IMG/VR virus record: IMGVR_UViG_3300005764_000058
Coordinates: 1-30,085 of that record
DNA length: 30,085 nucleotides
Origin: a virus
Taxonomy: Duplodnaviria; Caudoviricetes
Direction: 5' to 3' (one strand)
Shown: piece by piece, positions 6,806-30,085 of the stretch
Position numbering within the stretch: the stretch's first letter is position 1
Layout: each line of letters starts with the position of its first letter
Notes under the pieces: model-generated
What the model was told of the DNA's origin: nothing
Seen by the model: only the letters and a program-made list of their open reading frames with translations
Databases searched by the model: none
Translations under genes and position numbers: made by a program

Positions 6806-7377
6806 GGAAGATCGCTAAAATCGCGGCAGCGGCGGTGCTGTTGGCGTGCTTCGGGCAGGGTGCGCACGCGCTGCCGTTTATCGCCGCGGGCTCGACGCTA
6901 TCGTTGAACGGGAATGATTCGTTCGATGCAACCTCGGTCAATTTTCTTGGGTTGGCGGACAATCTGGGGGCGGATTCGGGGGATTTCTCGATCCTGCCGA
7001 CGTGCCTGGGTTGCGTGACGATGTTCGATTTCACATCGGCCTCTACCAGCTTTCTGGTGTACTCGTTCAGCGAGGCGGGGATCTCGACCGACTTGACCTT
7101 GGACGCGGTATCGTTTGCGTTCACCCCCGGCCCGCCGTTTGACACCTTGACGGTGACCGGGACCGGGACGGCGGATCTGACCGGGTTTGCCCCGACCCCT
7201 GGTGAGTTCTCGCTGACGACGCAGGGCAACTCGGGCCGCGGGGTCTTTACCTTTTCCTCGACCACCGGGGCGTTGCCGGTGAGCGAGCCCGGGACGCTGG
7301 CCTATCTCGGGCTGGCGCTGTTGGCGCTGTGGGGCCTGCGTCGGCGGCATTCCGGGCGCATGGAGGCCGCGATCTAG
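6802..7377 (+). CDS. Secreted PEP-CTERM-type surface protein
   Basis: Signal peptide ending AHA, Ser/Thr/Gly-rich body, and C-terminal VSEPGTLAYLGLALLALWGLRRR (PEP variant + TM helix + basic cluster). Confidence 0.88.
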   Translation: MRKIAKIAAAAVLLACFGQGAHALPFIAAGSTLSLNGNDSFDATSVNFLGLADNLGADSGDFSILPTCLGCVTMFDFTSASTSFLVYSFSEAGISTDLTLDAVSFAFTPGPPFDTLTVTGTGTADLTGFAPTPGEFSLTTQGNSGRGVFTFSSTTGALPVSEPGTLAYLGLALLALWGLRRRHSGRMEAAI

Positions 7378-9343: not shown

Positions 9344-9480
9344 TGGAAGGCTTCATTTTATCCACTTATGCAGACGCCATATTCTACGGACTAACCTGCG
9401 TGGGAATTATACTAGCGTTAGGCTCTATTATCGATTGGATAATCTGCGAGTTCCAGAATAAGGGAGAACGAGAAACCTGA
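9343..9480 (+). CDS. Small AT-rich single-TM protein, 45 aa
   Basis: Hand translation MEGFILSTYADAIFYGLTCVGIILALGSIIDWIICEFQNKGERET; TGATG overlaps at both ends exactly fill the terL-portal gap. Confidence 0.7.
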   Translation: MEGFILSTYADAIFYGLTCVGIILALGSIIDWIICEFQNKGERET

Positions 9481-12817: not shown

Positions 12818-14170
12818 ATGGCACAAACGACCGCCGGTTCATTACAGGGCGACGTACTTGCTTATCTGGCCGAGGAAGTGCTGCCGATCGCGCAGCGCCG
12901 CCTCGTCATCCACCAGTTTGGCGAGCGCAAGCGCATCCCCAAGGGACGCGGCAACACATGGTCGGCGACGCGCTACCAGCGCTTGCCGCTGCCTTATGCG
13001 CCGATCGCTGAAGGAGTGCCGCCGACCTCGCAGCAATTGACGATCCAGCAGGTGATCGGGACGGCGCAGCAATGGGCGGGGCTGGTTGTCATCACCGATG
13101 TCGCGGAGCTGACGATCTTTCACGACCCGTTTCAGCAAGCCAAGCGCATGCTGGGGTATCAGGTCGGCGAGTGCCTGGAGCGCAACGATTTCCTGGTGTT
13201 GATGGGAACGACCCAGGTCAACTACCCCAATTTGCGAGGCTCGCGCGCTAATCTGGTCGCGGGCGATGTGCTCGATCCCTATACGATCATTCGCACGCAA
13301 GCCGCGCTCGACGATATCGGGGCACCCTACTACGACGCTTCGACCGAGCCGCAGATCCGGGAGAACATTCGCGAAGGCGGCGCCGGGGCTTCGGGCAACC
13401 CGCGTTCGCACGAGCACTATGTCGCGGTCGGCCGCGGTTTGGCGCTCGCCGATCTGCGGCAGAACCCGACGATCGTCAACGCGTGGTCGTACTCCGACAT
13501 CAACCGACTCTATAATAATGAAGTCGGCGAGTGGTCATCGATCCGGTTCTGCCGGACCAATATGTCGCCGAGCTTTTTGGGCGCCGCCAACACCGCTTTC
13601 ACGGTCGGCGCCGCGACCGGCACCGGCTCAGGGTTTGCCGCCGGTACCTACTTTATCATCGTCACCGGCAGCGACTCGCAGAACCAGTATGAGTCCTACA
13701 TTTGCGCGGTTTCGGCCGGCACCGCCGCGACCGCCGGGCAGAATATCCCGGTCACGACGCCAAACGTCGCCGGCTACACCTGGAACATCTATGTCGGTTT
13801 GACCTCTAGCCCGCAAACCTTGGGGCTCTCCCCGTCCGGCCCAACCTCGGGTTCGATGGCGGGGCAGGCGGTGCAAATCCCGTCAAACACTACCGTCAAC
13901 CTAACCGGCATCGGTCTGCCCCAAGTACCGCCCGCCGCGCCCGCGGTCGGCGTCACGGTGCATGTGACATTCGTGTTCGGCCAGGGCGCCTTTGCCGTCG
14001 TCGAGCTCGAAAACATCGAATACAGCTATCTCAATTCCGCCGAGAAGATCGACCCGGTAAACCAGCTTCGCGTCGCCGGCTGGAAAGCGTTTCTCGGGGC
14101 GATGATCTTGAACTCCAATTTCGTCGCGCGTATCGAGAGCGCATCGGCCTTTAGCGCCACCTTCGGGTAA
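12818..14170 (+). CDS. Major capsid protein, N4-gp56-like family, with an inserted Ig-like domain
   Basis: QFGERKRIPKGRG, GEWSSIRF and C-terminal DPVNQLRVAGWK motifs; position after the scaffold. Confidence 0.9.
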   Translation: MAQTTAGSLQGDVLAYLAEEVLPIAQRRLVIHQFGERKRIPKGRGNTWSATRYQRLPLPYAPIAEGVPPTSQQLTIQQVIGTAQQWAGLVVITDVAELTIFHDPFQQAKRMLGYQVGECLERNDFLVLMGTTQVNYPNLRGSRANLVAGDVLDPYTIIRTQAALDDIGAPYYDASTEPQIRENIREGGAGASGNPRSHEHYVAVGRGLALADLRQNPTIVNAWSYSDINRLYNNEVGEWSSIRFCRTNMSPSFLGAANTAFTVGAATGTGSGFAAGTYFIIVTGSDSQNQYESYICAVSAGTAATAGQNIPVTTPNVAGYTWNIYVGLTSSPQTLGLSPSGPTSGSMAGQAVQIPSNTTVNLTGIGLPQVPPAAPAVGVTVHVTFVFGQGAFAVVELENIEYSYLNSAEKIDPVNQLRVAGWKAFLGAMILNSNFVARIESASAFSATFG

Positions 14171-14180
14171 GGAGTCCGGC

Positions 14181-14731: not shown

Positions 14732-14732
14732 G

Positions 14733-15299
14733 ATGGCGCTGCACACTTTTGGCACCAATGCCAACAATTTGCTGATCGCGCTCAAATATTTTCCCGGCGC
14801 GGCGACCCTCGACACCGACATCGGCAACCTCGAGAACTCGCTCGCTTCCGATGTGTGGACGGCGCAGAAAGGGACGCCGGGGGCGCCGCAGGTTCCCGAT
14901 TCGCCGGGGCCTACCGGGACGATCGCGACCGGGACCACCGCTGGCACCGTGACGGTCACCGCAGTTACGTTCGTTGCGGGTGCGCCGCTGGCGACGATCA
15001 CGCCGGGCGATGTCGTGCTCGGGGCCGGGATTCCCTCGACAACCTATGTCGTCACGTTTTCCGGCACGACGATGGTGATGAGCGCCGCTGCGACAACCTC
15101 GCTAACCGGGCAATACCTGCTTGTTCTGCCGCAGGACAACACCGCTTGGTTCAAGCGGGATGGAAGGCTCTTTGTGCCAAATAGGGGCGTCCTGAAGATC
15201 CGGCCCGGCGATGTGATCGCTCGCGATAACACCGGCTGGCCGATCCTGGTTTCCGGCGCATCGGCCAACTACCCTGGCTCGCAATGGACATTCACATGA
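14733..15299 (+). CDS. Putative virion structural/decoration protein with an inserted beta module
   Basis: Thr/Gly-rich; contains the GDVVLGAGIPSTTYV...MSAAAT module that recurs in the adaptor and nozzle. Confidence 0.75.
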   Translation: MALHTFGTNANNLLIALKYFPGAATLDTDIGNLENSLASDVWTAQKGTPGAPQVPDSPGPTGTIATGTTAGTVTVTAVTFVAGAPLATITPGDVVLGAGIPSTTYVVTFSGTTMVMSAAATTSLTGQYLLVLPQDNTAWFKRDGRLFVPNRGVLKIRPGDVIARDNTGWPILVSGASANYPGSQWTFT

Positions 15300-15973: not shown

Positions 15974-16563
15974 GCGAGCGCGACGAGCCGATCTCGCATG
16001 GCGTCGCGATGCGAGTCGGCATTGCCTGCGACGACGGCACGCAAATCGACTTGACCGCCGCGGTGTCGGCCGAAGACAGCCGCTTTCTGCTCGACGATAC
16101 GCTCGACCGGCTGGTGGCGGTCGGGCGGCGGCAGCGCGCGATTGTGCGGTTGCCGATGCTGCACCGGCAGCGCGAGGCGACGCTCATCTTGTTGGAACAG
16201 AATCAGCGGGCGCTCGCTGAAATGGAGGGCGCGTTTGCTGCGACGATGGCGGCCCGGCAAGCCCGTGTAGCCGAAAGCGAGAAAAAACGAAGCGACAAAC
16301 AGCGTTATTTTTCGGACGAATGGGTGGCGAGCGGCAAGCGGGGCGAGTATCAGCCACGCGGCGGCCAAGTTAGCGAGCTTGCCAAGCTTGATTCCGAAAT
16401 CAAGATTGTCGAGGCCGAGCAAATCAAGGCGAACCAGGAATTTGAGACGCAGCGCTCGCAACTGCAAAACGACATTCTCAAAAAAGAGCAAACCCTCAGC
16501 GAGATGGACGCCGACATTACCGAGTGCTTGCGGCTGACCAATGGTCATCTTAACGGTGGCTGA
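15970..16563 (+). CDS. Coiled-coil phage protein, 197 aa
   Basis: Long E/Q/K-rich heptad-like helices; coupled on both sides. Confidence 0.8.
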   Translation: MSERDEPISHGVAMRVGIACDDGTQIDLTAAVSAEDSRFLLDDTLDRLVAVGRRQRAIVRLPMLHRQREATLILLEQNQRALAEMEGAFAATMAARQARVAESEKKRSDKQRYFSDEWVASGKRGEYQPRGGQVSELAKLDSEIKIVEAEQIKANQEFETQRSQLQNDILKKEQTLSEMDADITECLRLTNGHLNGG

Positions 16564-17534
16564 TGCCTCTAAACGCCGCGCAAATCTGTCAGCTTGCCGG
16601 CAATCGGGCCAAGGTACCGGGGTTCGCGGCTGATCAAGGGGCGTGCCTCAACCTTGCGCTGCAATGGTTCGCGCAACGCTATGATTTTGAAGTCAACAAG
16701 GCGCCCTTCAACTTCAACTTCACCGGCGCCACCGCACCGATCGGCAACCTACAGGCGCAACTCGCCTCGGGTCCGTTCACACTGCCGGCCGATTACCTGC
16801 GCGCCAAGCGCGGCGATATTCAGTTTTATCCCGTCGCCGGCTATCCATTTCAACTGACACCGATCGATCTCAACGAGTTCGATCACCAATGGCAACAGGC
16901 CGGGTTTCAGAATTACCCGGTGTTTTGGGCAACCGACACCTCGCTGCGCCGCGATGTCCTGACGACGACCGGCTCGACGACGGCGGGCTCGGGCGTGATT
17001 GTCAACATGCTGACGACTGCGGGGCTGACTGCCGGCATGGGCGTTTATGGCGACGCGATCAAACTCGGCAGCGTCGCGCAGATCGTGGCGGGATCGATCA
17101 CCGCAACCGGCGTGACGCTCTCGGTTCCCGGCGATGTGCTATCGACCGGCCCCGGTGCCAGCCTCACCTTCGCGGTCAACCCGATCGCCTATGTGTGGCC
17201 GCCGGCCGGCGGCGCCTATCCGTGCTTTGTGCGCTACTACCGCATCCCGCCCGATATCGCCAACCCGGCGAGTTCGACGGCGATACCTTGGTTCGCTTTC
17301 CAGGATACGCTGGTCGATGCCGTCACCGGGCGGCTGATGCACGAGAGCGACGATGCGCGGGCGATGCAATTTCTCGGCGAGGGAGCTCCGAACAGCGTGC
17401 CGACCCAGATGCGCTCGCTGCTACAGATGAAGGATGATTACAACAACCGCGCCCGCACGGTCTCGCTCGACCGCCGCCGCTTTGGTCCCGGTTGGTCGAA
17501 CCTCCCCAAGAGCAAAGCTACCTTCGGTTTCTGA
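16563..17534 (+). CDS. Head-tail adaptor (tail tubular A-like) protein
   Basis: LNLALQW, TLPADYLR and YVWPP...VRYY pattern of podoviral adaptors; position before the large tail gene. Confidence 0.75.
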   Translation: MPLNAAQICQLAGNRAKVPGFAADQGACLNLALQWFAQRYDFEVNKAPFNFNFTGATAPIGNLQAQLASGPFTLPADYLRAKRGDIQFYPVAGYPFQLTPIDLNEFDHQWQQAGFQNYPVFWATDTSLRRDVLTTTGSTTAGSGVIVNMLTTAGLTAGMGVYGDAIKLGSVAQIVAGSITATGVTLSVPGDVLSTGPGASLTFAVNPIAYVWPPAGGAYPCFVRYYRIPPDIANPASSTAIPWFAFQDTLVDAVTGRLMHESDDARAMQFLGEGAPNSVPTQMRSLLQMKDDYNNRARTVSLDRRRFGPGWSNLPKSKATFGF

Positions 17535-20500
17535 TGCCGATCCGCAACACCCGCACCGTGACATGGAAGCCGCGGGGTTGTTCGGATGCTCTCGACGGCA
17601 GCAACGTCTTCCAGGGCGCCGCTCTGAACATGATCAATCTGGTGCCGAACCCCGGCACGATGGATCAATGGGTTTGCCGGCCGGCGCGGGACTATCTGAC
17701 CAATTTCGTCAATGCCGCGTTTTCGACGAACCCGACGACGGTGCGCGGCAACCCCGTCATCCTCGCCGATACGATTTTCGGATTCATCACGACGACGCGC
17801 AATCCGGGCCATGACGAACCTTATGCGGTCTCGGCGATCACCGGACAGGTTGTGTCGGTTTCCGGCGTCACGGTCGGTAACACGCCGACCACCGATCCCA
17901 ACCCGGTCGGCGCGACGCAATTGCCGATCGGCGCCGTCGTCGGTCCTTATGTCGTCTTCACGCATCCGGGATTTGCCGGGGGCATCTACAACCCAAACAG
18001 CTTCTCGGCGAGCATCACCGGCAATGTGGTGGCGGGGCAGAGCACGATCACCGGGTTTTTCGCCGGGCAGATTTACCCCGGCATGGTGGTGAGCGCCGCG
18101 GCTGGTCTCGCTCCTGGCACGGTCGCAACCTCCGGGGTTCAAACCGTCGATATCAATCAGTCGTCGAGCGGCATTGCGGGCAACAACTTCTTCACGGTGG
18201 CGAACTCGACCGGCTTGTTTCTCGGCATGTCGGCGATCGGGACGGGCCTCTCGGGATACATCACCGCGATTGCCGGGACGACGATCACGATCACGACGAC
18301 GCTGGCGACGACATTCTCTAATCAGACCGTCGCTTTTCACGGCAACACGGTTTCGATCTCGCCGGCCGCGACCGCAACCGCTGCCAATCAGCCGATTGCC
18401 TTCAATAATGCGCCCGACCGTTCCTCGGTCTTTGGCTGGTTCGATCTGACCGGGGCGAATATCAGCGTGCCGGCGACCCTGGTGAGCGGCAACCCGAATG
18501 CCGGGGTTGCCTCAATTGCCGGCTTGTCGGCGGGGATGAATGTCGCTGGCGCTGGTATCCCGGCCGGCACCCGCATCGCAAATATTCTCAATCCGACCTA
18601 CACCAGTCAGCCGGGCAATATCGGCGGCGGACAAACCGGCCTTTACATAACCGTCAGCTACCAGCCCGGCACGCTCTTGCCTCTCCCGGTACCGCAGGTT
18701 GGCTCAACGGTTACCGGGCCGGGTCTCGTCACCGGGACGGTGGCTAATGCAACCGCGCTGATCAGCCAGACCGCGACGCAGACCGTTTTTGGCATCACCC
18801 TCAACAATCCCGCTCTCGGAACCGCGCTGATCACCGGACTTTTTACGATCAGCGGGCTTTACACGGCGGTTTTGAGCCAAGCCGCCACGATCGGCGGTTC
18901 CTCGACGTTGACGATTACCGGCGGCACGATCGCGGCGCCGTTGTGGTGCGGCGGCACCACCGCGATCAACCCATTGCCGTCAACCCCTATAGGAGTCGGC
19001 AATTTCAACGGCCGGGCCTATTTTGCTTGTCAGCAGGACGGTGCGCCGTTCTCGGACGTGCAAAATCCGGCCTCGATCACGAACGCCAGCCAGGCCATCA
19101 TCCCCGGCAATCGCGAGGCTGTTACGGCTTGCGTCGGACAGCCGTTGCTCTCGCCGGTCAGCGGCGGCATGACCTCGGCGATGTACCTTTTTCAATCCGA
19201 TCTTGCGGTGCAGCAAGTAACCGGCGATCAGCAATTCGGCAACCTCGCGGTGCAGGCTCTCAATGTCGCCACCGGCACCCAATCGCCGGCCGCGATCGTG
19301 CCGACGACGCTCGGGATGGCGTTTATCTCGCCCGAGGGGGTGAGAATGATCGATTTCTCCGGGACGATCGGTCAGCCGATCGGCGAAGCCGGGTCCGGCG
19401 TAACGCTGCCCTTTGTCAACATCGCAGACCACTCGCGCGCGGTTGGCGCCGCCAACGGCAATGTGATCCGGTTTGCGCTGCAAAACGGGCAGCAGATCGG
19501 CCAACCCTGGATCGAATGGTGGTATGATCTGCCGCGCAAGGTGTGGAGCGGCCCGCATACGCTGCAAACCTCGGCGATCGCCAGCTATGGCGATACCTTC
19601 ATCACCGCCGCCCAGGATGTTCCCGCGCAGTTATATAAGAGTCCGTCGCAGCCGAGCGGGTTTGTCGATTTCGAGGAAGACGGTTCGACCCTGACTTGGG
19701 AAGCGCAAACGTGCCTGATGCCGGACACCGGTGCTATCGCCGAGAACGCCGTCGTCGAGGCAACGCTCGGGCTGGTGCATCCGTCCGATCAGCCAGTCAG
19801 CATCCAGGCGCTTAACGAGACCGGTACGGTGCTCGATTCGGTGATGTTGCCCGGACCCTACTCGATGCCGCTGTGGGGCGGGCCGCAATTATGGGGGACG
19901 GGTCTCTGGTACGCCGTCCCGGATCTCTTCCGCCAGGAGCGGCTAAACTGGCACAAGCCGCTCGTCTTTAAGCAGGCGCGCTTCCGTATCACCGGCCTTT
20001 CTCGGTTCGGGCTGACAATCGGCTCGTTGCGGCTGCGCTACGAGCAATTGGGGTATCTGTCCTACTGGCCGACCCAATCGCTCGACATCTCGGTGCCGCC
20101 ACTCCCCACCGCGCCGGTCATTCAGGGTCAGCCGCAAGCGGTAGTGGTCGCGGCCGGCGCCAGTCAGGGAACCGTCATCGGCACCTTGCTGGCGCAGCTT
20201 TCGCCGCATGGCGCGGCGCAGGCTGCCGCATTCATCCTCGAGTACAACCAAAGCAATCTCTTGGCGCTGGCTCCCTACAACAACAGCGCCATCCTCGGCA
20301 GTACCAACGGGACGACGACGATTGGCGGGTTTTCCGCGAACGCGCTCACCGCAGGATGGTTGCCGGGTCACATGATCACCGATTCGCGCGGCACCATCCC
20401 GGCCGGCACTTACATCGTCTCGATCGCCGCCGGGGGCCTCTCCGCGACGCTCTCGCAAGCGGCTGTGGCGAGCGCGGCCGGGGATCAATTCATCATCACC

Positions 20501-20626
20501 GGCACTAACCTGGTGACCAACTGGACGAGCGCACCCAGCATCAACAAGATCATCGGCGAGGTACAGGGCATTGCCGCTGGCGCGCTGACCTCTTACTGGC
20601 CTTTCATCGTGACGGTAACGCCATGA
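17534..20626 (+). CDS. Tail nozzle/hub protein (P22 gp10/T7 gp12-like) with inserted beta modules, 1030 aa
   Basis: Start at the TGATG overlap (MPIRN). GNFNGRAYF, PFSD, MAFISPEGVRMI and WWYDLPRKVWS propeller-like motifs; no signal peptide. Confidence 0.78.
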   Translation: MPIRNTRTVTWKPRGCSDALDGSNVFQGAALNMINLVPNPGTMDQWVCRPARDYLTNFVNAAFSTNPTTVRGNPVILADTIFGFITTTRNPGHDEPYAVSAITGQVVSVSGVTVGNTPTTDPNPVGATQLPIGAVVGPYVVFTHPGFAGGIYNPNSFSASITGNVVAGQSTITGFFAGQIYPGMVVSAAAGLAPGTVATSGVQTVDINQSSSGIAGNNFFTVANSTGLFLGMSAIGTGLSGYITAIAGTTITITTTLATTFSNQTVAFHGNTVSISPAATATAANQPIAFNNAPDRSSVFGWFDLTGANISVPATLVSGNPNAGVASIAGLSAGMNVAGAGIPAGTRIANILNPTYTSQPGNIGGGQTGLYITVSYQPGTLLPLPVPQVGSTVTGPGLVTGTVANATALISQTATQTVFGITLNNPALGTALITGLFTISGLYTAVLSQAATIGGSSTLTITGGTIAAPLWCGGTTAINPLPSTPIGVGNFNGRAYFACQQDGAPFSDVQNPASITNASQAIIPGNREAVTACVGQPLLSPVSGGMTSAMYLFQSDLAVQQVTGDQQFGNLAVQALNVATGTQSPAAIVPTTLGMAFISPEGVRMIDFSGTIGQPIGEAGSGVTLPFVNIADHSRAVGAANGNVIRFALQNGQQIGQPWIEWWYDLPRKVWSGPHTLQTSAIASYGDTFITAAQDVPAQLYKSPSQPSGFVDFEEDGSTLTWEAQTCLMPDTGAIAENAVVEATLGLVHPSDQPVSIQALNETGTVLDSVMLPGPYSMPLWGGPQLWGTGLWYAVPDLFRQERLNWHKPLVFKQARFRITGLSRFGLTIGSLRLRYEQLGYLSYWPTQSLDISVPPLPTAPVIQGQPQAVVVAAGASQGTVIGTLLAQLSPHGAAQAAAFILEYNQSNLLALAPYNNSAILGSTNGTTTIGGFSANALTAGWLPGHMITDSRGTIPAGTYIVSIAAGGLSATLSQAAVASAAGDQFIITGTNLVTNWTSAPSINKIIGEVQGIAAGALTSYWPFIVTVTP

Positions 20627-21339
20627 TGATGCGGGTGTGCGGGTTGCTGCTTCTCTCCGTATGGCTGATCACCGGGCCTTCAGGCGGCGCTCGAGCGGCA
20701 ACCTGCACGCTTCCCTATGTGCTGCAAAACGGCGTCGTCCCTGACGCGACGCAAGTGATGGCGAACTTTTACGCGCTTCTCAACTGCGTCAACACTGGCG
20801 GCGGCAGTGGCACGATCACCAGCATCACTCTCTCCGCCCCACCCGAGCTCTCGCCGGTCGGCGGCTCGCCATGCACCGGGCCGGCGTGCAATCTGATCAT
20901 CCCCAAGGCACCCGAAGCCGCGAACACGGTGTGGGCGGGCCCGACCTCGGGCGCGGCGGCGCCTCCGACGTTTCGACCGCTACCATACGAAGTTACCTTG
21001 GGATGGTCGGGTGTGCCGCCAAATGGGCTGGTGTTACTGTTTTCGATGGACGGTGCGGCGACTTGCCCGACCGGTTTTGCCGGATCGACGGCCGGCTCGG
21101 AAGTGGCACCGACCGCGGCGGTGACGGTCAACGTCAATCAGGTGACGAGCTCGGGGACACGAACCCCGCGCGGCACTATTGCGTGGGGCGCGGGTGCTGC
21201 CGCGTTCTCTCAACCGACCTTCGCCTCTAGTGGTGGCATGACGTTGGCGGCCACCGACTTTGTCGAGTTGGCGTTTCCGGCGAGCGCCGACGCGACTTTT
21301 GCCACCCCTTCGGTCACGCTCAAATGCGTGCGATCCTAG
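20623..21339 (+). CDS. Tail-fibre anchor/adaptor-like protein with a signal peptide
   Basis: Signal peptide ending ARA, then PYVLQNGVVPDATQVMANF (fibre N-terminal anchor motif) and ANTVWAGPTSGAAAPPTFRPL fibre-type repeat. Confidence 0.75.
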   Translation: MMMRVCGLLLLSVWLITGPSGGARAATCTLPYVLQNGVVPDATQVMANFYALLNCVNTGGGSGTITSITLSAPPELSPVGGSPCTGPACNLIIPKAPEAANTVWAGPTSGAAAPPTFRPLPYEVTLGWSGVPPNGLVLLFSMDGAATCPTGFAGSTAGSEVAPTAAVTVNVNQVTSSGTRTPRGTIAWGAGAAAFSQPTFASSGGMTLAATDFVELAFPASADATFATPSVTLKCVRS

Positions 21340-22163
21340 TAATCGCGCTATGCCTCTGCGCGAGGCTGGCGGCGGCGACCCCGCCGATGGTGGACAGCGG
21401 TAGCATCCACACCAACGGCGCCAGCGTCAGCAATAATCTTACACTTACACTCGTCACGGCATCGGCACCCGAGCGAATCATCCTCAATTTTGGCGCGGTC
21501 GATTTTACCTCGAATGGTACGCCGCAAGCGACTGGCGTTTCTGGGTGCGGGCTTTCTTGGTCATTGCGCAAGCGCACGACGTTTATCAACTTCACCGGGG
21601 GCACGTATTGCCACAACAACGCGTCCGGTACCTGTGACATCGATCAAGAAGAATGGACGGCATACGCCGCGAGCACAATTGCGAGTTGTACCGTAACGAT
21701 CGGCTTCTCGACCACGCCGGTCATATCCGGCGGGGTTTACGGGTTGTCTGGAATACCTAGCGGCGGCGCGTTTGATGCCAATGCCGGATTGCCAGCGGTT
21801 GCCACCGGGACCGCGATTACGGCAGTCCCCAACGTGTCCACGTCGTCTGTCCCATCGGCATTGTTTAATTTCAGCTCGGGAAATTACAATAGTCAAGCCG
21901 GTGGCACCGCTTGCAGCGGGTGGAATACAATATGGAATAACTTTCAATTCTATGGAGCCTTGTCTATCGGTATAAGCGCGGGCGCCGGACTTGCCCAAAA
22001 TCTTTGTTCTACTGTCTCTAATATATCAACGCCGATTTGGTCGGTAGGATGTAGCACAGTCTCGGCAAACATCGTCACCGCCGACGCGGTGCAGGGAATA
22101 CCATCGCCGGGCTGTACCAGCGGCGGCGGCGGCACCGGAAACGTCAATCTAAAGGTAAATTAG
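21324..22163 (+). CDS. Secreted beta-rich protein, putative virion appendage/receptor-binding module
   Basis: MRAILVIALCLCARLAAA signal; 8 mature Cys; Ser/Thr/Gly-rich. Confidence 0.75.
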   Translation: MRAILVIALCLCARLAAATPPMVDSGSIHTNGASVSNNLTLTLVTASAPERIILNFGAVDFTSNGTPQATGVSGCGLSWSLRKRTTFINFTGGTYCHNNASGTCDIDQEEWTAYAASTIASCTVTIGFSTTPVISGGVYGLSGIPSGGAFDANAGLPAVATGTAITAVPNVSTSSVPSALFNFSSGNYNSQAGGTACSGWNTIWNNFQFYGALSIGISAGAGLAQNLCSTVSNISTPIWSVGCSTVSANIVTADAVQGIPSPGCTSGGGGTGNVNLKVN

Positions 22164-22164
22164 G

Positions 22165-22320
22165 ATGCCGGGTAAACGCTTCACCGCGAAAGAAGACCGC
22201 CAGGCGGCGCACGTCGCTGCCTCGATGAAGAAAAAAGGAAAGTCGGCCAAGGCCGCCAAGTCGATCGGCTATGCTACGGTGGTCTCGCACGGCGGCGGCA
22301 AGCGGAAAGGCAAGAAATGA
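22165..22320 (+). CDS. Small basic protein, 51 aa
   Basis: Hand translation MPGKRFTAKEDRQAAHVAASMKKKGKSAKAAKSIGYATVVSHGGGKRKGKK; ATGA coupling. Confidence 0.75.
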   Translation: MPGKRFTAKEDRQAAHVAASMKKKGKSAKAAKSIGYATVVSHGGGKRKGKK

Positions 22321-22667
22321 TCCGGCTGTTTCTGATCGGCCTCTTGGTTGCGTGCGCGCTGCCGGTCTTCGCTCAAACCCAGCAGACGCCTACCTGGACC
22401 GTCAATCAAGCGGCCTGCGCCAAGGTGGTGACGCCGAGCGACACGGCACCGCTGCCTGCCGGGACGGCACCGTGCGCCAATTCTCCCAAGGCGCTATTCG
22501 TTGCCGGGACCGGGGCCGGGGCGGCGTGTGTGTTGGTCATGTCGCTGACCGGCGATCATGCCCAGATCACTTATGCTAACGTGCAGCCGGGGGCGTTTCT
22601 GCCAGTGCGGCCTTATCAAATTTTCGCGACGAATACGACATGCGTTGGCATGGTCGTGCTCTACTAG
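22317..22667 (+). CDS. Head-spike base protein (RcGTA Rcc01079-like) with a signal peptide
   Basis: VTPSDT..L...KALFVAGTG...ITYANVQPGAFLPVRP.QIFATNTT...VVLY family pattern after a VFA|Q signal peptide. Confidence 0.8.
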   Translation: MIRLFLIGLLVACALPVFAQTQQTPTWTVNQAACAKVVTPSDTAPLPAGTAPCANSPKALFVAGTGAGAACVLVMSLTGDHAQITYANVQPGAFLPVRPYQIFATNTTCVGMVVLY

Positions 22668-22864
22668 CGCTGGGCCTCTGCCTGGCGGCTGGCGCGGCGC
22701 TCGCGCAAGGGCTCGGCTTTGGCCTGGGCATCGATGACCAGCGCATCACCAAAGGCACCGGCACCACCGTCGTCATCCCGTCAAATTGCCTTCTGATCAA
22801 CGGCACGACGACAAACTGCCTCTTGGTCGCGGGCACGACCACCAACATTCTGCTGGTCAAATGA
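22640..22864 (+). CDS. Small secreted head-spike adaptor-like peptide
   Basis: Signal ending ALA|Q, mature GLGFGLGI motif, tandem NCLLxxGTTT repeats. Confidence 0.7.
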   Translation: MRWHGRALLALGLCLAAGAALAQGLGFGLGIDDQRITKGTGTTVVIPSNCLLINGTTTNCLLVAGTTTNILLVK

Positions 22865-25344
22865 AGGTTATCTTATATGGCGTGCTGACGCTGCTGCTGA
22901 TCGGCACCGCATGTCCGGCGCTGGCTCAAAGCCGCATCGATCAGCTTGGCGCGGGTGCGGCGATCACCGACGCCGACAAGCTCCCGGATTGCCAGGGCTG
23001 CAACGCCGCTACGCCAATGGTGGCGGTGACCGCAGCCCAGATCAACACCTATATCGCCTCGAAAGGCTATCTCACCGGCCTGCCGTCGATCGCTAACCTG
23101 CATGTGCTCGGCAACGCCACCGGCGGCGCGGCGGTCGCGCAGGACACAGCGCTGGTCGCGGGGGGCGGTATCTCGCTGGCCGGCGCGGGTGGCTCGATCA
23201 CGATCAGCGCGACCGGCGGCACGGTCTCCACCGGCGGGCCGCAGGCGATTGCGATCTATGGCGGCGCGTCTCCCAGCACGACGATCACGGCCGGCACGCT
23301 GGCATCATATTTTGTCTTGTCGGGCGGCAACCTGACGCTCGGCAACGTGCCGGCATCTGTGCTGGCGCCGGGGGCGGCGGCGACTAATGTCGGAACCTTG
23401 ACCGGCGACGCGGCGGGCTCGACGCTCCCCAACATTACGCTGACCAGCGTGATCACGGCGGGATCGTGCCTCAGTTGTAACCTCACCTATGACGCGAAGG
23501 GGCGAATCACCGTAGCGGCAAACGGCAGCGGCGGAGTGACGGTGCCGGCTGGCCCGATCGTGACAGCCAACGGCACCACTTTCGGCAATGCCACGCTTGG
23601 CACCGGGATGACGCTGACCGGCACCTTTCCGAACCAGGTGTTGGCGTCATCGGGTGGCGGTGGCGGTATCACCGGCCCGGCTTCGACGACGGTCGGTTTT
23701 GTGCCGCAGTGGTCGAATACCGCCGGCACGGCGTTGGGCGCCGGCTTGCCGGTCGGGACCACCGGGTCGAATACGATCGTCGAAACCACCGCAGGCGGCA
23801 CGATCAGCAACACGCTGATCTCGGGCTTACCGAACTCGGCGCTTCTCAATTCTTCTTTTCAGCTCGGCTCGACGCTGGTTGCGCTCGGTACGACGCAACC
23901 GAGCATCACCGCTCTTAGTCTGTTGGCGTCGCCGAGCTTGGGATTGCGCGACACCAGTGCATCCTTTGACGTGACCTTGAGCGCGACCTCGAGCGTGGCG
24001 CTGACGGCAGGACGCCAGTTGATCTTCGATGTCGTCAACGGCAGCCGCACTTTAAAGCTCGCCTCAAACCTGACGATCGCGAGTGACCCCGGCGCGGTGA
24101 CCGGGGCGCTCAGAAGCAACGGCACCGGAACCTTCTCGCAAGCCTCGTGCGCCGATCTCTCAACTGCCTGCACGACCGGCACCGGTACCGCGAACTCGGT
24201 CACCAAATGGATCTCGGTATCAACGCTCGGCAACAGCACAATCACCGATGGCGGCACCGGCGTCGTCGTCGGCGCCGCGGTCGGCGGTGCGCAGGGCAGC
24301 GGTACGCTCAACATGCAGGGCTGTTACGTCAATGGCGTCGCCTGCACGACCGGGCCGGCAGCCGGCATCTTCTTTGCCGGCACGACCGCCGGGACGGCCA
24401 ACGCGCAGACGATCGCGACGCCGACGCCGAGCGGGTTCACGCTCACCGATGGCTATACAGTGCGTGCGCGTATCGGCTCGGGGCTCACCAATACCGGCTC
24501 TGTCACGTTGAATGTCGCGAGCACCGGCGCGCAGCCGGCGATGGTGCAGACCGACGCCGGGACGGTGGCGCTGGTCGGCGGTGAGCTCGCGGCCGGCGCG
24601 CTGGTCGATTTCACCTATCAAACATCATGCACTTGCTATGCAACCAATGCGCTGACCGGCGCCGGCATCACCGCCAATCCGAGCGCGGTCACGGTCAGCG
24701 CGACGCAATGGGCTTACGGGCACATCTTTGTCTTTACCAGTTCCGGCCTTACCCTGACATTGCCGAGCGCGGCGACTTTGGCGAGCAACGGTGCGGTCGT
24801 CATCCAGACGATCGGCGTCCTGGCGACGCTCACGCCGCAATCGACCGACGCTATCAACAACGGGCAGGTAGGCGGTGGAGCTCTGGGAGCCGCGATCACT
24901 ATTCCTGCCGACACGTTTACGGTTGTCTCAACCAGCGGAGTCGCCGGGACAACGGCGTTCTCGGCACCGTTGGGGCCGGTACAGTATGCGCCGCTGACAT
25001 GGGGCAACGGCGAGAACCTTTCGACCAACCCGCTGCCGATTATGCGGTTTGCGACGCCGCGCATCGTCTACGGGGTGCGCTGCCTGCCGACCGCTCTCGA
25101 ATCAACCGCGGCGACGGTAGACATCTATTCCTTTGCCAGCGGCGGCACCCTGCCGCCGGCCGGCGGCGTCAAGATCAATACATCGGCCGGCAATGTCGGA
25201 ACCGGCGGCACGGCGGGAACCGAGCAAGACCTTGGTGTTACGACAACGACCGTGCCGGCGGCCTATTGGTTGATCCTGGTCGGGTCCGGGACATGGCCGT
25301 CAACACCCGCCGGGGCCGGTGCCTGTCAGGTGACGTACCGATGA
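22861..25344 (+). CDS. Long fibre protein with a signal peptide, 827 aa
   Basis: MKVILYGVLTLLLIGTACPALA|QSRIDQL...DKLP fibre N-terminal motif; YDAKGRIT, GTANA...NTGSVTLNV and LTLPSAA fibre motifs. Confidence 0.85.
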   Translation: MKVILYGVLTLLLIGTACPALAQSRIDQLGAGAAITDADKLPDCQGCNAATPMVAVTAAQINTYIASKGYLTGLPSIANLHVLGNATGGAAVAQDTALVAGGGISLAGAGGSITISATGGTVSTGGPQAIAIYGGASPSTTITAGTLASYFVLSGGNLTLGNVPASVLAPGAAATNVGTLTGDAAGSTLPNITLTSVITAGSCLSCNLTYDAKGRITVAANGSGGVTVPAGPIVTANGTTFGNATLGTGMTLTGTFPNQVLASSGGGGGITGPASTTVGFVPQWSNTAGTALGAGLPVGTTGSNTIVETTAGGTISNTLISGLPNSALLNSSFQLGSTLVALGTTQPSITALSLLASPSLGLRDTSASFDVTLSATSSVALTAGRQLIFDVVNGSRTLKLASNLTIASDPGAVTGALRSNGTGTFSQASCADLSTACTTGTGTANSVTKWISVSTLGNSTITDGGTGVVVGAAVGGAQGSGTLNMQGCYVNGVACTTGPAAGIFFAGTTAGTANAQTIATPTPSGFTLTDGYTVRARIGSGLTNTGSVTLNVASTGAQPAMVQTDAGTVALVGGELAAGALVDFTYQTSCTCYATNALTGAGITANPSAVTVSATQWAYGHIFVFTSSGLTLTLPSAATLASNGAVVIQTIGVLATLTPQSTDAINNGQVGGGALGAAITIPADTFTVVSTSGVAGTTAFSAPLGPVQYAPLTWGNGENLSTNPLPIMRFATPRIVYGVRCLPTALESTAATVDIYSFASGGTLPPAGGVKINTSAGNVGTGGTAGTEQDLGVTTTTVPAAYWLILVGSGTWPSTPAGAGACQVTYR

Positions 25345-25535
25345 TCCGATGGGCCTTTGTCATCCTGCTGCTGCTCGCCACATCGGCGAGCGCCAACCTG
25401 GTGCAGATGGTCACGATCAGCGGCGGCGGCATGCCGATCGCACCAGCCTGCGGCGGCACCGTGATCGCGGGTGCCGGGGCGCTGATAATCGGCAGCAACA
25501 CCAACATCGTCGTGATCATGGGGTGCGCGTCATGA
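25341..25535 (+). CDS. Small secreted peptide, 64 aa
   Basis: MIRWAFVILLLLATSASA|NLVQ...; ATGA coupling on both sides; 2 Cys. Confidence 0.75.
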   Translation: MIRWAFVILLLLATSASANLVQMVTISGGGMPIAPACGGTVIAGAGALIIGSNTNIVVIMGCAS

Positions 25536-26332
25536 AATGGAGGATCTTGCTCCTGGCGGCGGTTCTGGCCTGCGCCGGCCACATGGCCGCGGCGCAGATG
25601 ACCGTCCCGGTGACGAACAGCGGCACCGGCACGACCAACGGGCTGCTCGCGAAGCTGACGGGAGCGCCGTCAACCGCCGTGACGGTGTTGACGAGCGATA
25701 CCGGGGGCGCGATCGGTGTCGTGGTCTCGGGGGGCGGCACGACCGGGACTGCGATCGTCGGCGTCAACGGCATTGTCTCGTGCACTTTTGACGGCGCGGG
25801 TGTCGTGGCCAATCATTACGTGCAGATCAGCGCGACGACGGCGGGAAATTGTAAGGATGGCGGCGCAAGCTATCCAGCCTCGGGTCAGGTGGTTGGTATG
25901 GCGCTGCAAACTATCGGCTCGTCGGGTCCGGCTAACATGGTGGTCTTTCCGCCGCCTGGGATCGCTGGCGCGTCCGGCGCCTCGACCAGCGCAAATAATA
26001 CCTTCACGGGCACAAACACGTTCAGCGGCTCGACGATCGGTCCCGCGCCGATCACTATCACCACCGCGCTCACCGTTGACAGTACCATCACTTGCGGCGC
26101 GCTTTACCGCTACAACTCAGCCTCGCCGGCTAACGCTACGGTCAATACGAGCTTTCCGGCCGGGTGCTCGATCGGCATCGAACAGCTCAGCACCGGGGCG
26201 ATGACGGTGGTTGCCGGCACCGGCACGGTCCATTCGCCCTGCACGACCGTCGCCACCAACGCGCAATATGCGGTGATATCGGTCTTTGGCGAAGCCGCGG
26301 GCACTGCCTTGGTCGGAGGGCGCTGCACTTGA
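25532..26332 (+). CDS. Secreted protein with a capsid-cement-like (DUF2190-like) N-domain and a fibre-tip-like C-domain
   Basis: Signal ending AAA|Q; GAIGVV...VNGIVSC...QVVGMAL; ANNTFTGTNTF; YNSASP...IGIEQ.STG domain. Confidence 0.7.
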   Translation: MKWRILLLAAVLACAGHMAAAQMTVPVTNSGTGTTNGLLAKLTGAPSTAVTVLTSDTGGAIGVVVSGGGTTGTAIVGVNGIVSCTFDGAGVVANHYVQISATTAGNCKDGGASYPASGQVVGMALQTIGSSGPANMVVFPPPGIAGASGASTSANNTFTGTNTFSGSTIGPAPITITTALTVDSTITCGALYRYNSASPANATVNTSFPAGCSIGIEQLSTGAMTVVAGTGTVHSPCTTVATNAQYAVISVFGEAAGTALVGGRCT

Positions 26333-27264
26333 TCCTCCGCGCTCTGGCGTTGCTGCTGGCGCTGGCCGGGTCGGCTCACGCGCAAGGGCTGCCGTGGCAC
26401 GTGCGCGCGCAGGACAAAGCTACCGTCGCCGGGGGTGGCTGCACCGGCGGGTATCTTGGCTCGGGCGATGCGCTCTCGGGAGCGGCCCATTATTGGGGCG
26501 TGCGCGGCTACTCGTGCGCCTACTCGACCGGCGCGAACAACGCGATGATCATCCGGCGCGCCAGCGACAACACGACGAGCACGATCAAAATCCTGAACAC
26601 CGGATCGCTCGACACAGCGAGCGCGAGCTCGTTCTGTTCCGCAACGGCCTGTTTTGTCACGACTCTTTACGATCAGGTCGGGACCGCCAACCTGACGCAG
26701 GCGACTAACGCCAATCAGCCGCAGCTAATCTTTAGTTGCAAGGGTACATTGCCGTGCATCCAATTCGACGGCTCGTCGATGATACTTACCGGAACGATCA
26801 CCAGTATTTCGCCGCCGATTTCGTATAGCACTGCGGTAAATGTAACCGGAGACAATGCAGTGTTGGGTTTCCAAATTATTCTAGGTACAGAAAATTCTGG
26901 CGGCGGTGCAGCCGCAAGTCTAAATCGCAGCGTCGCTAATAGTTGGAACAGCGGAACAGAGGGCAATAGCTTGAGCAGTATGAGTTCCACCGATGCCACA
27001 TGGCACACGGCGCAAGCAACGTTTACCACAACCGCGAGCACTTCGGTGCTTAATATAGATGGCACCGAAACGACAGGCAGCACCAATGGCTCGGCGGGGG
27101 GCTATACAATATCTGACCTTAGCGGGCGCAGCACTGCGGCAAATTATTACATGAAGGGCCAAGCCGGCGAATATCGGATCGACACGGCGGCTTATTCGTC
27201 TGGCAACCGCACCGCCCTTTGCCACAACCTACGCCTTTATTGGAGCACGGCCGGATCATGCTAA
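26329..27264 (+). CDS. Secreted ConA-like protein resembling the arabinofuranosidase-B (GH54) catalytic-type domain
   Basis: TTG start (TTGA overlap); signal ending AHA|Q; IRRASDN, LDTA..SFC...CFVTTLYDQ.G..NLTQA...QP motifs. Confidence 0.72.
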   Translation: MILRALALLLALAGSAHAQGLPWHVRAQDKATVAGGGCTGGYLGSGDALSGAAHYWGVRGYSCAYSTGANNAMIIRRASDNTTSTIKILNTGSLDTASASSFCSATACFVTTLYDQVGTANLTQATNANQPQLIFSCKGTLPCIQFDGSSMILTGTITSISPPISYSTAVNVTGDNAVLGFQIILGTENSGGGAAASLNRSVANSWNSGTEGNSLSSMSSTDATWHTAQATFTTTASTSVLNIDGTETTGSTNGSAGGYTISDLSGRSTAANYYMKGQAGEYRIDTAAYSSGNRTALCHNLRLYWSTAGSC

Positions 27265-28247
27265 AACTGCTGGTTACGGGCCTTGGAGCGCTGCTTTGGG
27301 CGAGCGCGGCTTCGGCAGCGTGTGGCACTGATCTGCCGTACACAGCGCAGGCGCGGGCCGATGTGGCGGCGATGGGCTACACCTGTGAGATACTCGCCGA
27401 TAGTTTCACCGCTCTTTCGACGATCGATCTGGTGCAGAATGCGCAGCCTTACAGCGCCGGATACAATTGGTATTCGGTCGGGCCGTGGCCGCGAGTGGCG
27501 AGCTGCAACAATCAGCCTTTCTGGTGCACGTCTTCGGCGCAGAACGTTTCGAGCGGCTTTGCCTCGATCGTGGGCGGCAAGGTGAAGCTGACGCAGAATG
27601 TCTCGACGCCTTCCTCTTATCCGATCTTGTCGTCGTGCTATCCGACAGGTGCGGCACCTTATTGGGGAGGGACGCCGATCCCGCCAGGCGGATACTATTT
27701 CGAAGTCAAATTTTCGTCCGGCACGCCGACGATCGCCTGGACGATGCCAACCGAGTTTCTGACGGCGGGTATCGGTGCCACGGTGCAATTCGTCGAGGAA
27801 GACAACATTGACAATGGCGGCAACGGGCGGGGCAATGCCGCGTGGTATACGACCGGCGGGGCATTGGAAACCAATCAAGGCATTTTCTTGGAAAGCCCGC
27901 AGGACACGATCACCAATGCGCTGGTAGCCGGGGTGATGGCGGTGCCGGCGGCCGATGCCAACGGACAAACGCTGTCAAGTGGCGTGCTGCCGGTCGGTCA
28001 GGTAATCCTCAACTGGTACAACACCACCGGGTTTGCTGCCACCAATGCCGGCAACGGTGCCACTTCTCCCTTTACCGGCAACTGGATCACACAACTGACC
28101 AACCAGCACAATTGCGTCTTGATCAGCGGCAATGGGGTTGGCGTGCAATTCGGGGTCGATTGGGTGCGGGTGTGGACAAAGCCGGTAAGTTCCGGCGGCA
28201 CGCCCGGCACCGGCTCCGGTTTCCGGCTTTTTGGCACAAGGGGTTGA
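27258..28247 (+). CDS. Secreted GH16-like/ConA-fold protein
   Basis: Signal ending ASA; GYYFEVK, WTMPTE, EEDNID and VDWVRVW motifs. Confidence 0.65.
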   Translation: MLKLLVTGLGALLWASAASAACGTDLPYTAQARADVAAMGYTCEILADSFTALSTIDLVQNAQPYSAGYNWYSVGPWPRVASCNNQPFWCTSSAQNVSSGFASIVGGKVKLTQNVSTPSSYPILSSCYPTGAAPYWGGTPIPPGGYYFEVKFSSGTPTIAWTMPTEFLTAGIGATVQFVEEDNIDNGGNGRGNAAWYTTGGALETNQGIFLESPQDTITNALVAGVMAVPAADANGQTLSSGVLPVGQVILNWYNTTGFAATNAGNGATSPFTGNWITQLTNQHNCVLISGNGVGVQFGVDWVRVWTKPVSSGGTPGTGSGFRLFGTRG

Positions 28248-29242
28248 TGATGGACCGCGATAAGGTTTGGCAATTTGACGCTATCACCTGGCGCACCTTG
28301 GCGGTCCTAGTGGTCTTGATCCTGGGCTTGATGTTCTGGGCCACGGCTCATGCGCAGTCGATCACCGTCAACGGGTCGGCTAATGCGACGGTCGCGCCAG
28401 ACTCGACGATGGCGATCCATGTAACCGGGGGCAGTGGCAGCAACACGGATTGGATTGCCCTGGGGCCGCACACGTCAACCCCGAATAATGACGTGTTCAA
28501 TTGGGTTTATCTGAGCGGCACCGGCACGCCGCCACCGACCGCGATGAGCTCGGCTACCGTCAGCATGGTCGCGCCGAGCGCGCAGAACACCTACGAGGCT
28601 CGGTTCTACGCCAACAACGGCTACACCTTGATCGCATCGACGACGTTCACCGCGCAAACCGGCGGCGGTGGTGGTGGGGGCGGCGGCGGTGGTGGCGCTA
28701 CCGGCTCTTGCCCGACTGGGCAATTCGTCACGTCGATTACCGCTACAGCGGTCAACTGCGCGCCGCTGCCGCCGATACTAAGCTATCTCGCAGGCGATCC
28801 GACCGGATCGTGCACAGGCTCGCCGGGGGCGCCGACCGATAACGGGTTCTCGTTTGATAGCGCCGCGGGCAATCTCAAACTGTGGTTCTGCCTAAACAAC
28901 GCGTGGAGATCGGCGCTGCTGCCGGCGTCCAAGCCGATTCGCATGACCTCAAGCGCGACCGACACTCTGACCTCGAATGATTGCTTCGGCTACGTGCATT
29001 ATAACAGCGCGAGCCCGGTGACGGTGACGGTTCCGGCCAACTTGCAGACCGCAGCAGGGTATTGCGATATCGGACTTCTCCAGGACGGAGCTGGGCCGGT
29101 GTCGCCGGTCGCAGGGGCCGGGATAACCGGCGGCAATCCGTTCGGGTTCACGCAAACCGTGGGGCCGGGCGGCTGGTTGATCGTCCACGCCTATAGTCGC
29201 GGCGGCAGCCCGGCTTACGTCTTCTCGGGCGATGGCAAATGA
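28247..29242 (+). CDS. Secreted modular fibre-like protein (Ig-like domain, poly-Gly linker, fibre-tip-like domain)
   Basis: Signal ending AHA|Q; DWIAL..WVYL..YEARFY Ig-like pattern; CPTGQFVTSI; YNSASPVTVTVP...IGLLQDGAG domain shared with 25532. Confidence 0.75.
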   Translation: MMDRDKVWQFDAITWRTLAVLVVLILGLMFWATAHAQSITVNGSANATVAPDSTMAIHVTGGSGSNTDWIALGPHTSTPNNDVFNWVYLSGTGTPPPTAMSSATVSMVAPSAQNTYEARFYANNGYTLIASTTFTAQTGGGGGGGGGGGGATGSCPTGQFVTSITATAVNCAPLPPILSYLAGDPTGSCTGSPGAPTDNGFSFDSAAGNLKLWFCLNNAWRSALLPASKPIRMTSSATDTLTSNDCFGYVHYNSASPVTVTVPANLQTAAGYCDIGLLQDGAGPVSPVAGAGITGGNPFGFTQTVGPGGWLIVHAYSRGGSPAYVFSGDGK

Positions 29243-30085
29243 TTTCCTGGCGGCTGCGTCTTTTCCTATGGCTGGCATTCGCGCTCGGCCTTGCCTACAC
29301 ATCCGATGTCGAAGCGCTGATGCGCGGCGGTCGCGGCGGCGGGGGCGGCGCGGCGCAAACCATCGTCTCGATTACGCCGTCATCGTGCAGCTTCACCGCG
29401 GCGGTGCAGAACGGCTCCGTTTGCACCCTCACGGTCAATATGAGTGCGGGTCCTGCTTTCAGCGGCACTCTGGCGCTCTGCACCGGGACGAATGCACCGA
29501 TCAGCGGTTGCACCGGAGGCAATACCGGTGCCTTTCACCTAGTCGGCTGTGCGATGGCATCCTGCACCTTGGAGCAAAGCGCGGCGGCGGGTGGCACCCC
29601 GGCCGGCACCTATACCGATGTTTACGCCTACGCGCAGCAAACCGGGATTTCCAATTCGCCGCAGTTCCAGGCGCTCACCTTGACAGGAGCGGCCGCCGGG
29701 GCGGGGATCACATCGTTCACGATTCAGAACGCCGACGCCGCGAGCGCTGTCGTGCCCGGGGCCAACGGCTATCCTTATGTCGGCGGGCAATCTTGGGCGC
29801 GCGGCGATTGGGTGCCGGGAACCAATTACCCGATTTGCCAGGATCACGCGAACGCAGCGGTGCTGCCGTGCCAATGGGATCAGATCGGGACCTATCGCGA
29901 GAATGGCGATAATGGCTCGGTCAGGCACGCCAGCTTTTCGGTGCTGCTACCGGCGAGCTCGCCGCAATATGCCTCAGGCGGCATTCCGGCCTGCACCGCA
30001 AGCCCATGCACCGGCATCTTCCAGATCGATTTTGTCTCGCAATCCGGCACCTATACGCCCAATGTTCACGGCTCGATCAACGATG
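29239..30085 (+). CDS. Large secreted protein (partial, runs off the right edge), possible glycan-binding/depolymerase appendage
   Basis: Hand translation, not in the ORF track: MISWRLRLFLWLAFALGLAYTSDVEA|LMRGGRGGGGGG...; ATGA coupling; frame stays open to the window end. Confidence 0.8.
   Translation, partial: MISWRLRLFLWLAFALGLAYTSDVEALMRGGRGGGGGAAQTIVSITPSSCSFTAAVQNGSVCTLTVNMSAGPAFSGTLALCTGTNAPISGCTGGNTGAFHLVGCAMASCTLEQSAAAGGTPAGTYTDVYAYAQQTGISNSPQFQALTLTGAAAGAGITSFTIQNADAASAVVPGANGYPYVGGQSWARGDWVPGTNYPICQDHANAAVLPCQWDQIGTYRENGDNGSVRHASFSVLLPASSPQYASGGIPACTASPCTGIFQIDFVSQSGTYTPNVHGSIND

Follow-up and report, generated by a model that had tools for sequence, protein, structure and literature searches.

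The record IMGVR_UViG_3300005764_000058, a stretch of 30,085 nucleotides from an uncultured phage of a soil metagenome that was analysed whole and is called the window here, ends in a run of twelve late genes placed directly after the adaptor and nozzle genes of a tailed phage, nearly all of whose products open with what appears to be a Sec-type signal peptide. An earlier note on this DNA had pointed to eleven such leaders and had proposed that fibres and spikes are exported, matured in the periplasm and added to a particle built in the cytoplasm. In canonical tailed-phage morphogenesis all virion proteins are leaderless and assembly is cytoplasmic; in the window the core genes are leaderless and the fibre and spike genes are not. 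The genes of the late block, with the cysteines (Cys) of their mature chains, are as follows.

20623..21339, plus strand: predicted short tail fibre with signal peptide, anchor, shaft repeat and C-terminal jelly-roll tip; 6 Cys
21324..22163, plus strand: signal peptide and Ser/Thr/Gly-rich protein, no family found; 8 Cys
22165..22320, plus strand: twelfth gene, a Lys-rich protein of 51 residues without a hydrophobic leader by the signal rule
22317..22667, plus strand: signal peptide and predicted head-spike base of the RcGTA type (NF048002, E 2.3e-9, 37.4 bits against a cut-off of 28); 4 Cys
22640..22864, plus strand: signal peptide and predicted plug peptide of 52 residues with mature start QGLGFGLGI and two or three LLxxG repeats at its end; 2 Cys
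22861..25344, plus strand: signal peptide and mosaic fibre-like protein of 805 residues; 12 Cys
25341..25535, plus strand: signal peptide and uncharged peptide of 46 residues, no assignment; 2 Cys
25532..26332, plus strand: signal peptide and beta-rich protein with weak virion-protein matches; 6 Cys
26329..27264, plus strand: signal peptide (TTG start) and GH54 arabinofuranosidase-B-like domain (PF09206, E 1.5e-9); 8 Cys
27258..28247, plus strand: signal peptide and GH16-like protein (Atlas 0.92, a lead only); 6 Cys
28247..29242, plus strand: signal peptide with long n-region and multi-domain protein with a poly-Gly linker; 6 Cys
29239..30085, plus strand: signal peptide and Cys-rich protein without assignment, cut by the record end

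Leaders were scored with a purpose-written rule for the n/h/c plan of Sec signals, the criteria being a basic n-region, an uncharged hydrophobic h-region and small residues at -3 and -1. Eleven of the 12 late genes pass, as against one of 15 other window genes (the PEP-CTERM gene at 6802), on a background of 0.7-1.5% (24 of 3670 internal positions, 2 of 188 internal start codons and 66 of 4500 shuffled mature chains), which bears out the earlier count. The terminase, portal, scaffold, major capsid protein, adaptor and nozzle genes all fail, and the statement that the portal, capsid, adaptor and nozzle proteins have no leaders holds. All 11 leader starts are in frame and overlap the 3' end of the preceding gene, by 4 nucleotides (ATGA or TTGA) in seven cases and by 1-28 nucleotides in the rest, in agreement with the translational coupling that had been suggested. 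The likely cut, judged by eye, is AxA in nine of the 11, as had been said of most of them, the exceptions being VFA (22317) and VEA (29239). The weakest leaders are those of 28247, whose 16-residue n-region could make it a signal-anchor, and of the truncated gene 29239, which has an acidic c-region. The leader of 22317 contains LVAC, a cysteine that its signal-bearing homologues do not have, and twin-Arg-like leaders occur on the spike bases of some relatives. Gln is the first residue of six of the 11 likely mature chains (22317, 22640, 22861, 25532, 26329 and 28247) and could cyclise to pyroglutamate, a modification of N-terminal Gln that occurs in Bacteroidota and that bears on N-terminal sequencing.

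The upstream genes that supply the comparison are listed below, the labels of portal, scaffold and nozzle being drawn from position and size.

7382..9343, plus strand: terminase large subunit, leaderless (phrog_38, E 8.5e-42)
9480..11621, plus strand: probable portal, leaderless; its sole family match is weak (phrog_332 "head-tail adaptor", E 2e-5)
12818..14170, plus strand: major capsid protein of the N4-gp56 family, leaderless (TIGR04387, E 6e-31; phrog_1357)
14733..15299, plus strand: conserved Cys-free late protein, leaderless, used as internal control (67 distinct homologues in the fetched loci); possibly a capsid cement protein
16563..17534, plus strand: podovirus head-tail adaptor of the SU10 type, leaderless (PF24175, E 2.8e-8)
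17534..20626, plus strand: probable tail nozzle of 1030 residues, leaderless, so labelled because it follows the adaptor and aligns with relatives

None of the 67 homologues of the internal control carries a signal, none of 100 adaptor homologues passes the rule, and the four of 117 nozzle homologues that do pass all come from mis-called internal starts. Moreover, the linkage of core genes to signal-bearing genes is not an assembly join, because positions 14038-25571 recur with zero differences in another assembly, made from a soil run that is possibly the source sample.

The tail fibre and its anchor family

The N-terminal anchor of 20623 consists of a strand and a helix flanked by a Cys pair. 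A structure model built on an alignment of 11 sequences has a predicted local distance difference test score (pLDDT) of about 90 in the tip and 47-63 in the anchor, the N-terminal helix being of low confidence. The tip resembles the long tail fibre gp015 of Agrobacterium phage 7-7-1 (PDB 9RKV; available text of PMC12796354), with a Foldseek E value of 2.6e-5 and a VIA Z score of 12.6 (root-mean-square deviation 3.2 over 115 residues), the next-best structural match reaching Z 7.6, and the viral structure library BFVD returns many tail fibres for it. Like podovirus tail fibres, the gene stands directly after the adaptor and nozzle and encodes an anchor-shaft-tip plan. The complete relative closest to the window is G001 (a genome of 46,262 bases with terminal repeats and a major capsid protein 87-96% identical; relatives are given by the handles of the analysis). 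Its signal-bearing anchor gene, in the same place, matches a tail-fibre PHROG (E 4.5e-19) and the S74 chaperone (E 2.4e-15). By this placement, plan, modelled tip fold and counterpart, 20623 is a predicted podovirus tail fibre, which differs from other podovirus fibres in the signal peptide that precedes its anchor and in the Cys pair that flanks it.

The anchor has no match in the PDB, PHROGs or GenBank phages; sequence searches of the PDB gave nothing significant for 20623, 22640 or the adaptor, nozzle and anchor profiles; and GenBank phages gave no meaningful match for 20623, two leaderless or Cys-free anchors and one fibre start. A predicted complex of two adaptor and three anchor copies had a median score of 0.14 and is taken as evidence neither way.

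Viral contigs were scanned for the anchor; of 146 matches the best 80, joined by L006 and the window, gave 82 anchors, 72 of them distinct, among which 61 pass the rule, four have a signal by eye and seven are leaderless. The predicted cut precedes the anchor Asp by 16 residues in 44 of the 61 (by 15-26 in the others, mostly where the rule chose an earlier AxA), and Met1 precedes the same Asp by 15-17 residues in all seven leaderless forms, so that cleavage would restore the N-terminus of the leaderless homologues. Lipoprotein signals are not indicated, the residue preceding the first Cys being T, P, N or E in 37 of 52, and the Tat consensus is found in none of 61. When phages were selected through their adaptor only, and thus blind to the signal, the anchor gene was of the signal form in 21 of the 26 distinct phages that have one, so the survey of related phages that the earlier note had called for does find retained signal peptides; signal-bearing fibres are the majority state in this podophage group. 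A quick adaptor tree of 76 rows scatters the seven leaderless anchors and implies five changes of signal state, at least two of them forced, for which no direction of gain or loss is claimed.

Cysteine content varies with the leaders. It is even and non-zero in all ten complete mature chains of the window (6, 8, 4, 2, 12, 2, 6, 8, 6, 6; p about 0.001) and, among 54 complete signal-bearing anchor proteins, even in 48, odd in three and zero in three. The Cys pair flanking the anchor is present as a whole in 56 cases and absent as a whole in nine, with no single cysteines, and it is absent in all seven leaderless forms. Parity is near random in core homologues (adaptors 41 even and 52 odd; nozzles 52 and 64). 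The 149 best library matches of 20623, most of which share only the shaft repeat, are weakly informative (signal forms 14 even, 4 odd and 2 zero; others 45, 61 and 21).

G001 has nine leader-bearing genes after its nozzle (seven by rule, two by eye), all with even Cys, and no leaderless fibre was recognised among its 50 called genes, of which 33 were scanned; fibres on its particle, if any, would therefore come from the exported set. A leaderless, almost Cys-free version of the 20623-type anchor stands after a nozzle-like gene in a separate phage group of low GC content (38-49%; L034, L040, L043, L097). A second anchor-like family, GP...LNxLIxxIN, is signal-bearing in eight cases and leaderless in two (loci L013 of G002, L030, L039, L053, L071, L100, L142, L160 and L182), with none seen in the window.

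The head-spike base, its plug and a candidate fibre

The head spike of RcGTA is made of a base, Rcc01079, which forms a jelly-roll pentamer on capsid vertices, and a fibre, Rcc01080 (PDB 6TB9; PMC7296036, PMC5026251), and fibre residues 2-10, IALGLGLGL, bind the base pentamer, according to the available text of PMC7296036. The product of 22317, which also matches phrog_12296 and Rcc01079 of 6tb9 (E 0.025), is by its family matches a predicted spike base of the Rcc01079 family; a single-sequence model (pLDDT 40) was discarded and left unused for the question of fold or pentamer. In the same gene order as RcGTA, the mature chain of the next gene, 22640, opens with an alternating hydrophobic-Gly plug, GLGFGLG, having four of the five hydrophobic positions of the RcGTA-type plug. 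It differs from its RcGTA counterpart in being a peptide of 52 residues rather than a fibre of 325, and both window genes differ in their signal leaders and cysteine pairs. The peptide likely joins the base to a fibre, and the following gene, 22861, likely encodes this head fibre: its N-terminus is related to that of the third gene in the triplets of L121 and L192, the C-terminal 225 residues are 48% identical to a signal-bearing late protein of G001, and the nearest Atlas clusters are 100% viral (scores 0.83-0.88, a lead only). Basic peptides resembling the product of 22165..22320 precede the spike base in L120 and L121.

The two partners share their signal state. Base and plug are both signal-bearing in eight pairs (the window, L120, L121 and L188-L192, where the L190 partner was found by eye, L190 and L191 are close kin and the L191 plug is a variant) and both start at Met1 in four (L141, L194 and the cultured phages P8625 and ZHS, whose homologous pairs are in this respect unlike the window). 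There are no mixed pairs (Fisher p 0.003 on 7 against 4, kinship uncorrected); L188-L194 were retrieved with a signal-bearing query. No plug partner was recognised beside five further leaderless bases (L148, L159, L184, L186, L193). Tagged pairs also stand beside head and portal genes of other kinds, so the module extends beyond this phage group.

The claim that several mature N-termini match docking motifs otherwise found at Met1 thus stands for the fibre anchor and the spike base, both of which have leaderless relatives. It is not confirmed for the third motif, xIxQL...D.LP, which was seen only in signal-bearing genes, at three loci; a leaderless start of the form xIxQL..D.LP was sought in the fetched loci and PHROGs and none was found.

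A proposed route and the explanations that compete with it

In the route proposed here, head, adaptor and nozzle would assemble in the cytoplasm, while the tail fibre, spike base, plug peptide, head fibre and lectin-like proteins would pass through the host Sec system to the periplasm. There, cleavage would yield the same N-termini as those of the leaderless homologues, and the chains would fold with disulfides and pre-assemble, to dock onto the cytoplasm-built particle when the envelope breaks at lysis. Completed particles of P22, T7 and T4 accept tailspikes, fibres or decoration proteins in vitro. Judged from sequence, translocation and cleavage by way of Sec are very likely and disulfide formation in the exported chains is likely. 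It is fairly probable that 20623 and the spike trio, at least, attach to particles, and the full route of export, periplasmic maturation and docking at lysis is favoured a shade less firmly, with docking presumably timed at lysis and not earlier. As an interpretation, the earlier proposal is supported for export and cleavage (through the register, the even cysteines and the lack of lipoprotein or Tat features in the anchor family), while particle attachment keeps the standing of a proposal.

Two known systems offer partial parallels. The MAT fibres of Bdellovibrio bacteriovorus combine a signal peptide with a phage-type trimeric fibre, in some cases with S74, on the bacterial surface (available text of PMC10769870), so that fibres of this type can be exported and mature outside the cytoplasm. 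The likeness, by description only, has its limits: MAT fibres are bacterial chromosomal adhesins with a conserved beta-rich N-domain of their own of about 130 residues and are displayed on the predator, whereas the window genes belong to the late operon of a phage and retain motifs for docking on the virion. The coat proteins pIII and pVIII of the filamentous phages (Inoviridae) are virion proteins made with cleaved signal peptides, and they remain in the inner membrane and assemble during extrusion. Unlike these, the window belongs to a tailed phage of the HK97 type with a terminase and a leaderless capsid, and no membrane anchor was recognised on the mature chains of its late proteins.

A number of observations weigh against the proposed route. 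For five of the 11 leader-bearing proteins (21324, 25341, 27258, 28247 and 29239) no virion link was found beyond operon position, so that the appendage identity claimed for the block holds for 20623, 22317 and 22640 by fold, family and motif but for these five by position only. The leaders were scored by our own rule, not SignalP; the Cys-bearing anchor query biased the sample towards signal forms, and related sequences are not independent. Leaderless fibre-like genes also occur: a short leaderless anchor gene lies next to the signal-bearing one in L143 and L152, G002 has a separate leaderless fibre-like block, and a different, leaderless gene comes first after the nozzle in L121, L125, L175 and L177, so that cytoplasmic parts could do the virion job there. 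Neither the window nor the 33 scanned G001 proteins yielded a recognised endolysin or holin family, and the searches brought up no cultured phage as a close relative: among GenBank capsid matches that span over half of the protein, the best stay below 28% identity. Nor do disulfides point unambiguously to the periplasm. The leaderless anchor protein of L155 has seven Cys. The capsid proteins of phage 7-7-1 assemble in the cytoplasm. They hold a disulfide network according to the available text of PMC12796354, so that cysteines alone are no proof of periplasmic folding. In the available text of the Milano paper on virion disulfides (PMC10811340), the terms "periplasm", "cytoplasm" and "signal peptide" do not occur.

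The best-surviving alternative, which we nevertheless consider unlikely, is that the exported proteins never join a particle. Set free at lysis, they would act as decoys, block receptors or loosen capsules as lectins; or they would be displayed by the cell during infection or lysogeny. Signal-bearing, phage-like trimeric S74 fibres do serve on the Bdellovibrio surface (available text of PMC10769870), but the anchor and spike-base motifs keep their exact register, for which no cellular binder is known. The resemblance of 26329 and 27258 to secreted glycosidase folds would suit such a role, as would the presence of a PEP-CTERM cell-surface protein in the same late run; against this, the late-block genes are translationally coupled to the nozzle gene and no outer-membrane anchor was recognised on any of the 11 proteins. 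Finally, although some relatives also keep leaderless fibre-like genes, the G001 particle, for which none was recognised, would on this reading be bare.

Less probable again is decoration before the outer membrane opens, with heads entering the periplasm after inner-membrane breakdown, or a non-lytic or vesicle exit, possibly with membrane-tethered precursors. Appendages kept in a closed compartment would escape the dilution that assembly at lysis entails, the long n-region of 28247 is signal-anchor-like, and the lack of a recognised lysis family noted above is in keeping with it; yet lysozyme-like genes were found by inspection in G002 and G003, and the complete relatives showed no recognisable machine dedicated to export or assembly. 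It is very improbable that the leaders are not working signals at all, but mis-assigned starts, N-termini hydrophobic by chance or pro-peptides cut off in the cytoplasm. The rule is home-made and some genes hold later in-frame start codons; yet each of the 11 starts overlaps the gene before it, 22640 has no alternative start within its first 60 codons, the next starts of 20623 and 22861 lie inside conserved mature sequence, and the leaders of 65 anchor homologues keep the n/h/c plan in unrelated sequences and go with cysteine pairs.

Other genes of the window and implications for phage biology

Among the remaining late-block proteins, 25532 has weak matches to phrog_21978 (E 1e-3) and phrog_18179 "virion structural protein" (E 4e-3). 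The PF09206 match of 26329 covers the N-terminal part of the family model only, and homologues in phage loci carry a signal in four of six cases; 27258 shares 161 Atlas features with GH16 clusters and has no Pfam match. From these matches, both look like sugar-binding or glycosidase folds. The two domains of 28247 are common to signal-bearing late proteins of G001 and G005. A further signal-bearing gene runs leftwards from 232 (minus strand) off the record; its mature start, LLRGG, resembles LMRGG in 29239 and the RGG/GGG starts of late proteins in G001 and G004, and is possibly another docking motif.

The core proteins show structural variation of their own. The family match of the capsid protein is split into two stretches by additional sequence, the adaptor carries an insert of about 75 residues that is not present in G002, and the nozzle, for which family and PDB searches gave no match, is 300-500 residues longer than its counterparts (535-709 residues in four relatives). 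All these inserts (12818-14170, 16563-20626) are Thr/Gly-rich and leaderless.

Outside the appendage block lies one more leader-bearing gene.

6802..7377, plus strand: signal peptide and PEP-CTERM protein, ending 4 nucleotides 5' of terL

This protein, of which the earlier note says nothing, passes the signal rule and scores 18.3 bits for TIGR02595 (cut-off 16) and 20.6 for PF07589 (cut-off 20.7). This phage-borne exosortase substrate suggests a diderm host with exosortase; it is not in G001, its slot before terL is occupied in G003 and G004 by small membrane and lipoprotein-like genes, and a literature search found no description of phage PEP-CTERM proteins. No host is claimed beyond this: the resolvase had no plasmid match at 1e-30, and three short contigs of metagenome-assembled genomes pointed to three different taxa.

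Because the record ends inside 29239, ejection and lysis genes are missing from it. A protein of 58 residues with two hydrophobic segments (11621-11797, plus strand), coupled to the portal gene and without family match, is a holin candidate. A serine recombinase of the resolvase/invertase type (824-1429, plus strand) is followed by a Mom-family DNA-modification gene (1444-2001, plus strand); invertase-type cassette repeats were sought in 20400-30085, where only short imperfect Gly/Thr-codon repeats and an internal repeat of 22640 were found. The listed sequencing runs containing the record include no RNA run. In relatives, a reverse-strand membrane gene lies within the post-nozzle block (L110:11262-12182 and L121:16415-17602, minus strand; similar in L105, L112, L120, L125, L167 and L177), and two of four scanned match the O-antigen ligase Wzy_C (E 2-3e-5, below cut-off); it could act in serotype conversion or as a periplasmic glycosylating enzyme for the exported proteins. 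A PurD-like ATP-grasp protein (L009:478-1767 in G001; TIGR00877, E 5e-18, below cut-off) adjoins ejection-protein genes across the group, with counterparts in G002, G003, G004 and L168.

Tailed-phage particles are taken as complete before lysis and as built only from cytoplasmic proteins. A literature search of titles and the beginnings of abstracts, which took in few subscription journals and no supplements, found no description of the export of tailed-phage fibres or spikes. The odds lean modestly towards the broader statement that a widespread group of soil podophages splits its morphogenesis, with the whole host-recognition kit exported through host Sec, oxidatively folded and pre-assembled in the periplasm, and snapped on as the cell opens, and with leaderless forms in the minority. 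If so, a final assembly step would take place outside the cytoplasm and depend on host Sec, signal peptidase and disulfide machinery, a new host dependency. More speculatively, such a route would let phages use disulfide-stabilised sugar-binding domains, and until release it may hold the parts that bind the receptor apart from the particle and out of reach of defence sensors in the cytoplasm. Late genes with signal peptides are usually written off in annotation as morons or membrane proteins; in a large uncultured group they could instead encode the proteins that bind the receptor. The small base-and-plug pair opens the proposal to direct tests in a laboratory strain.

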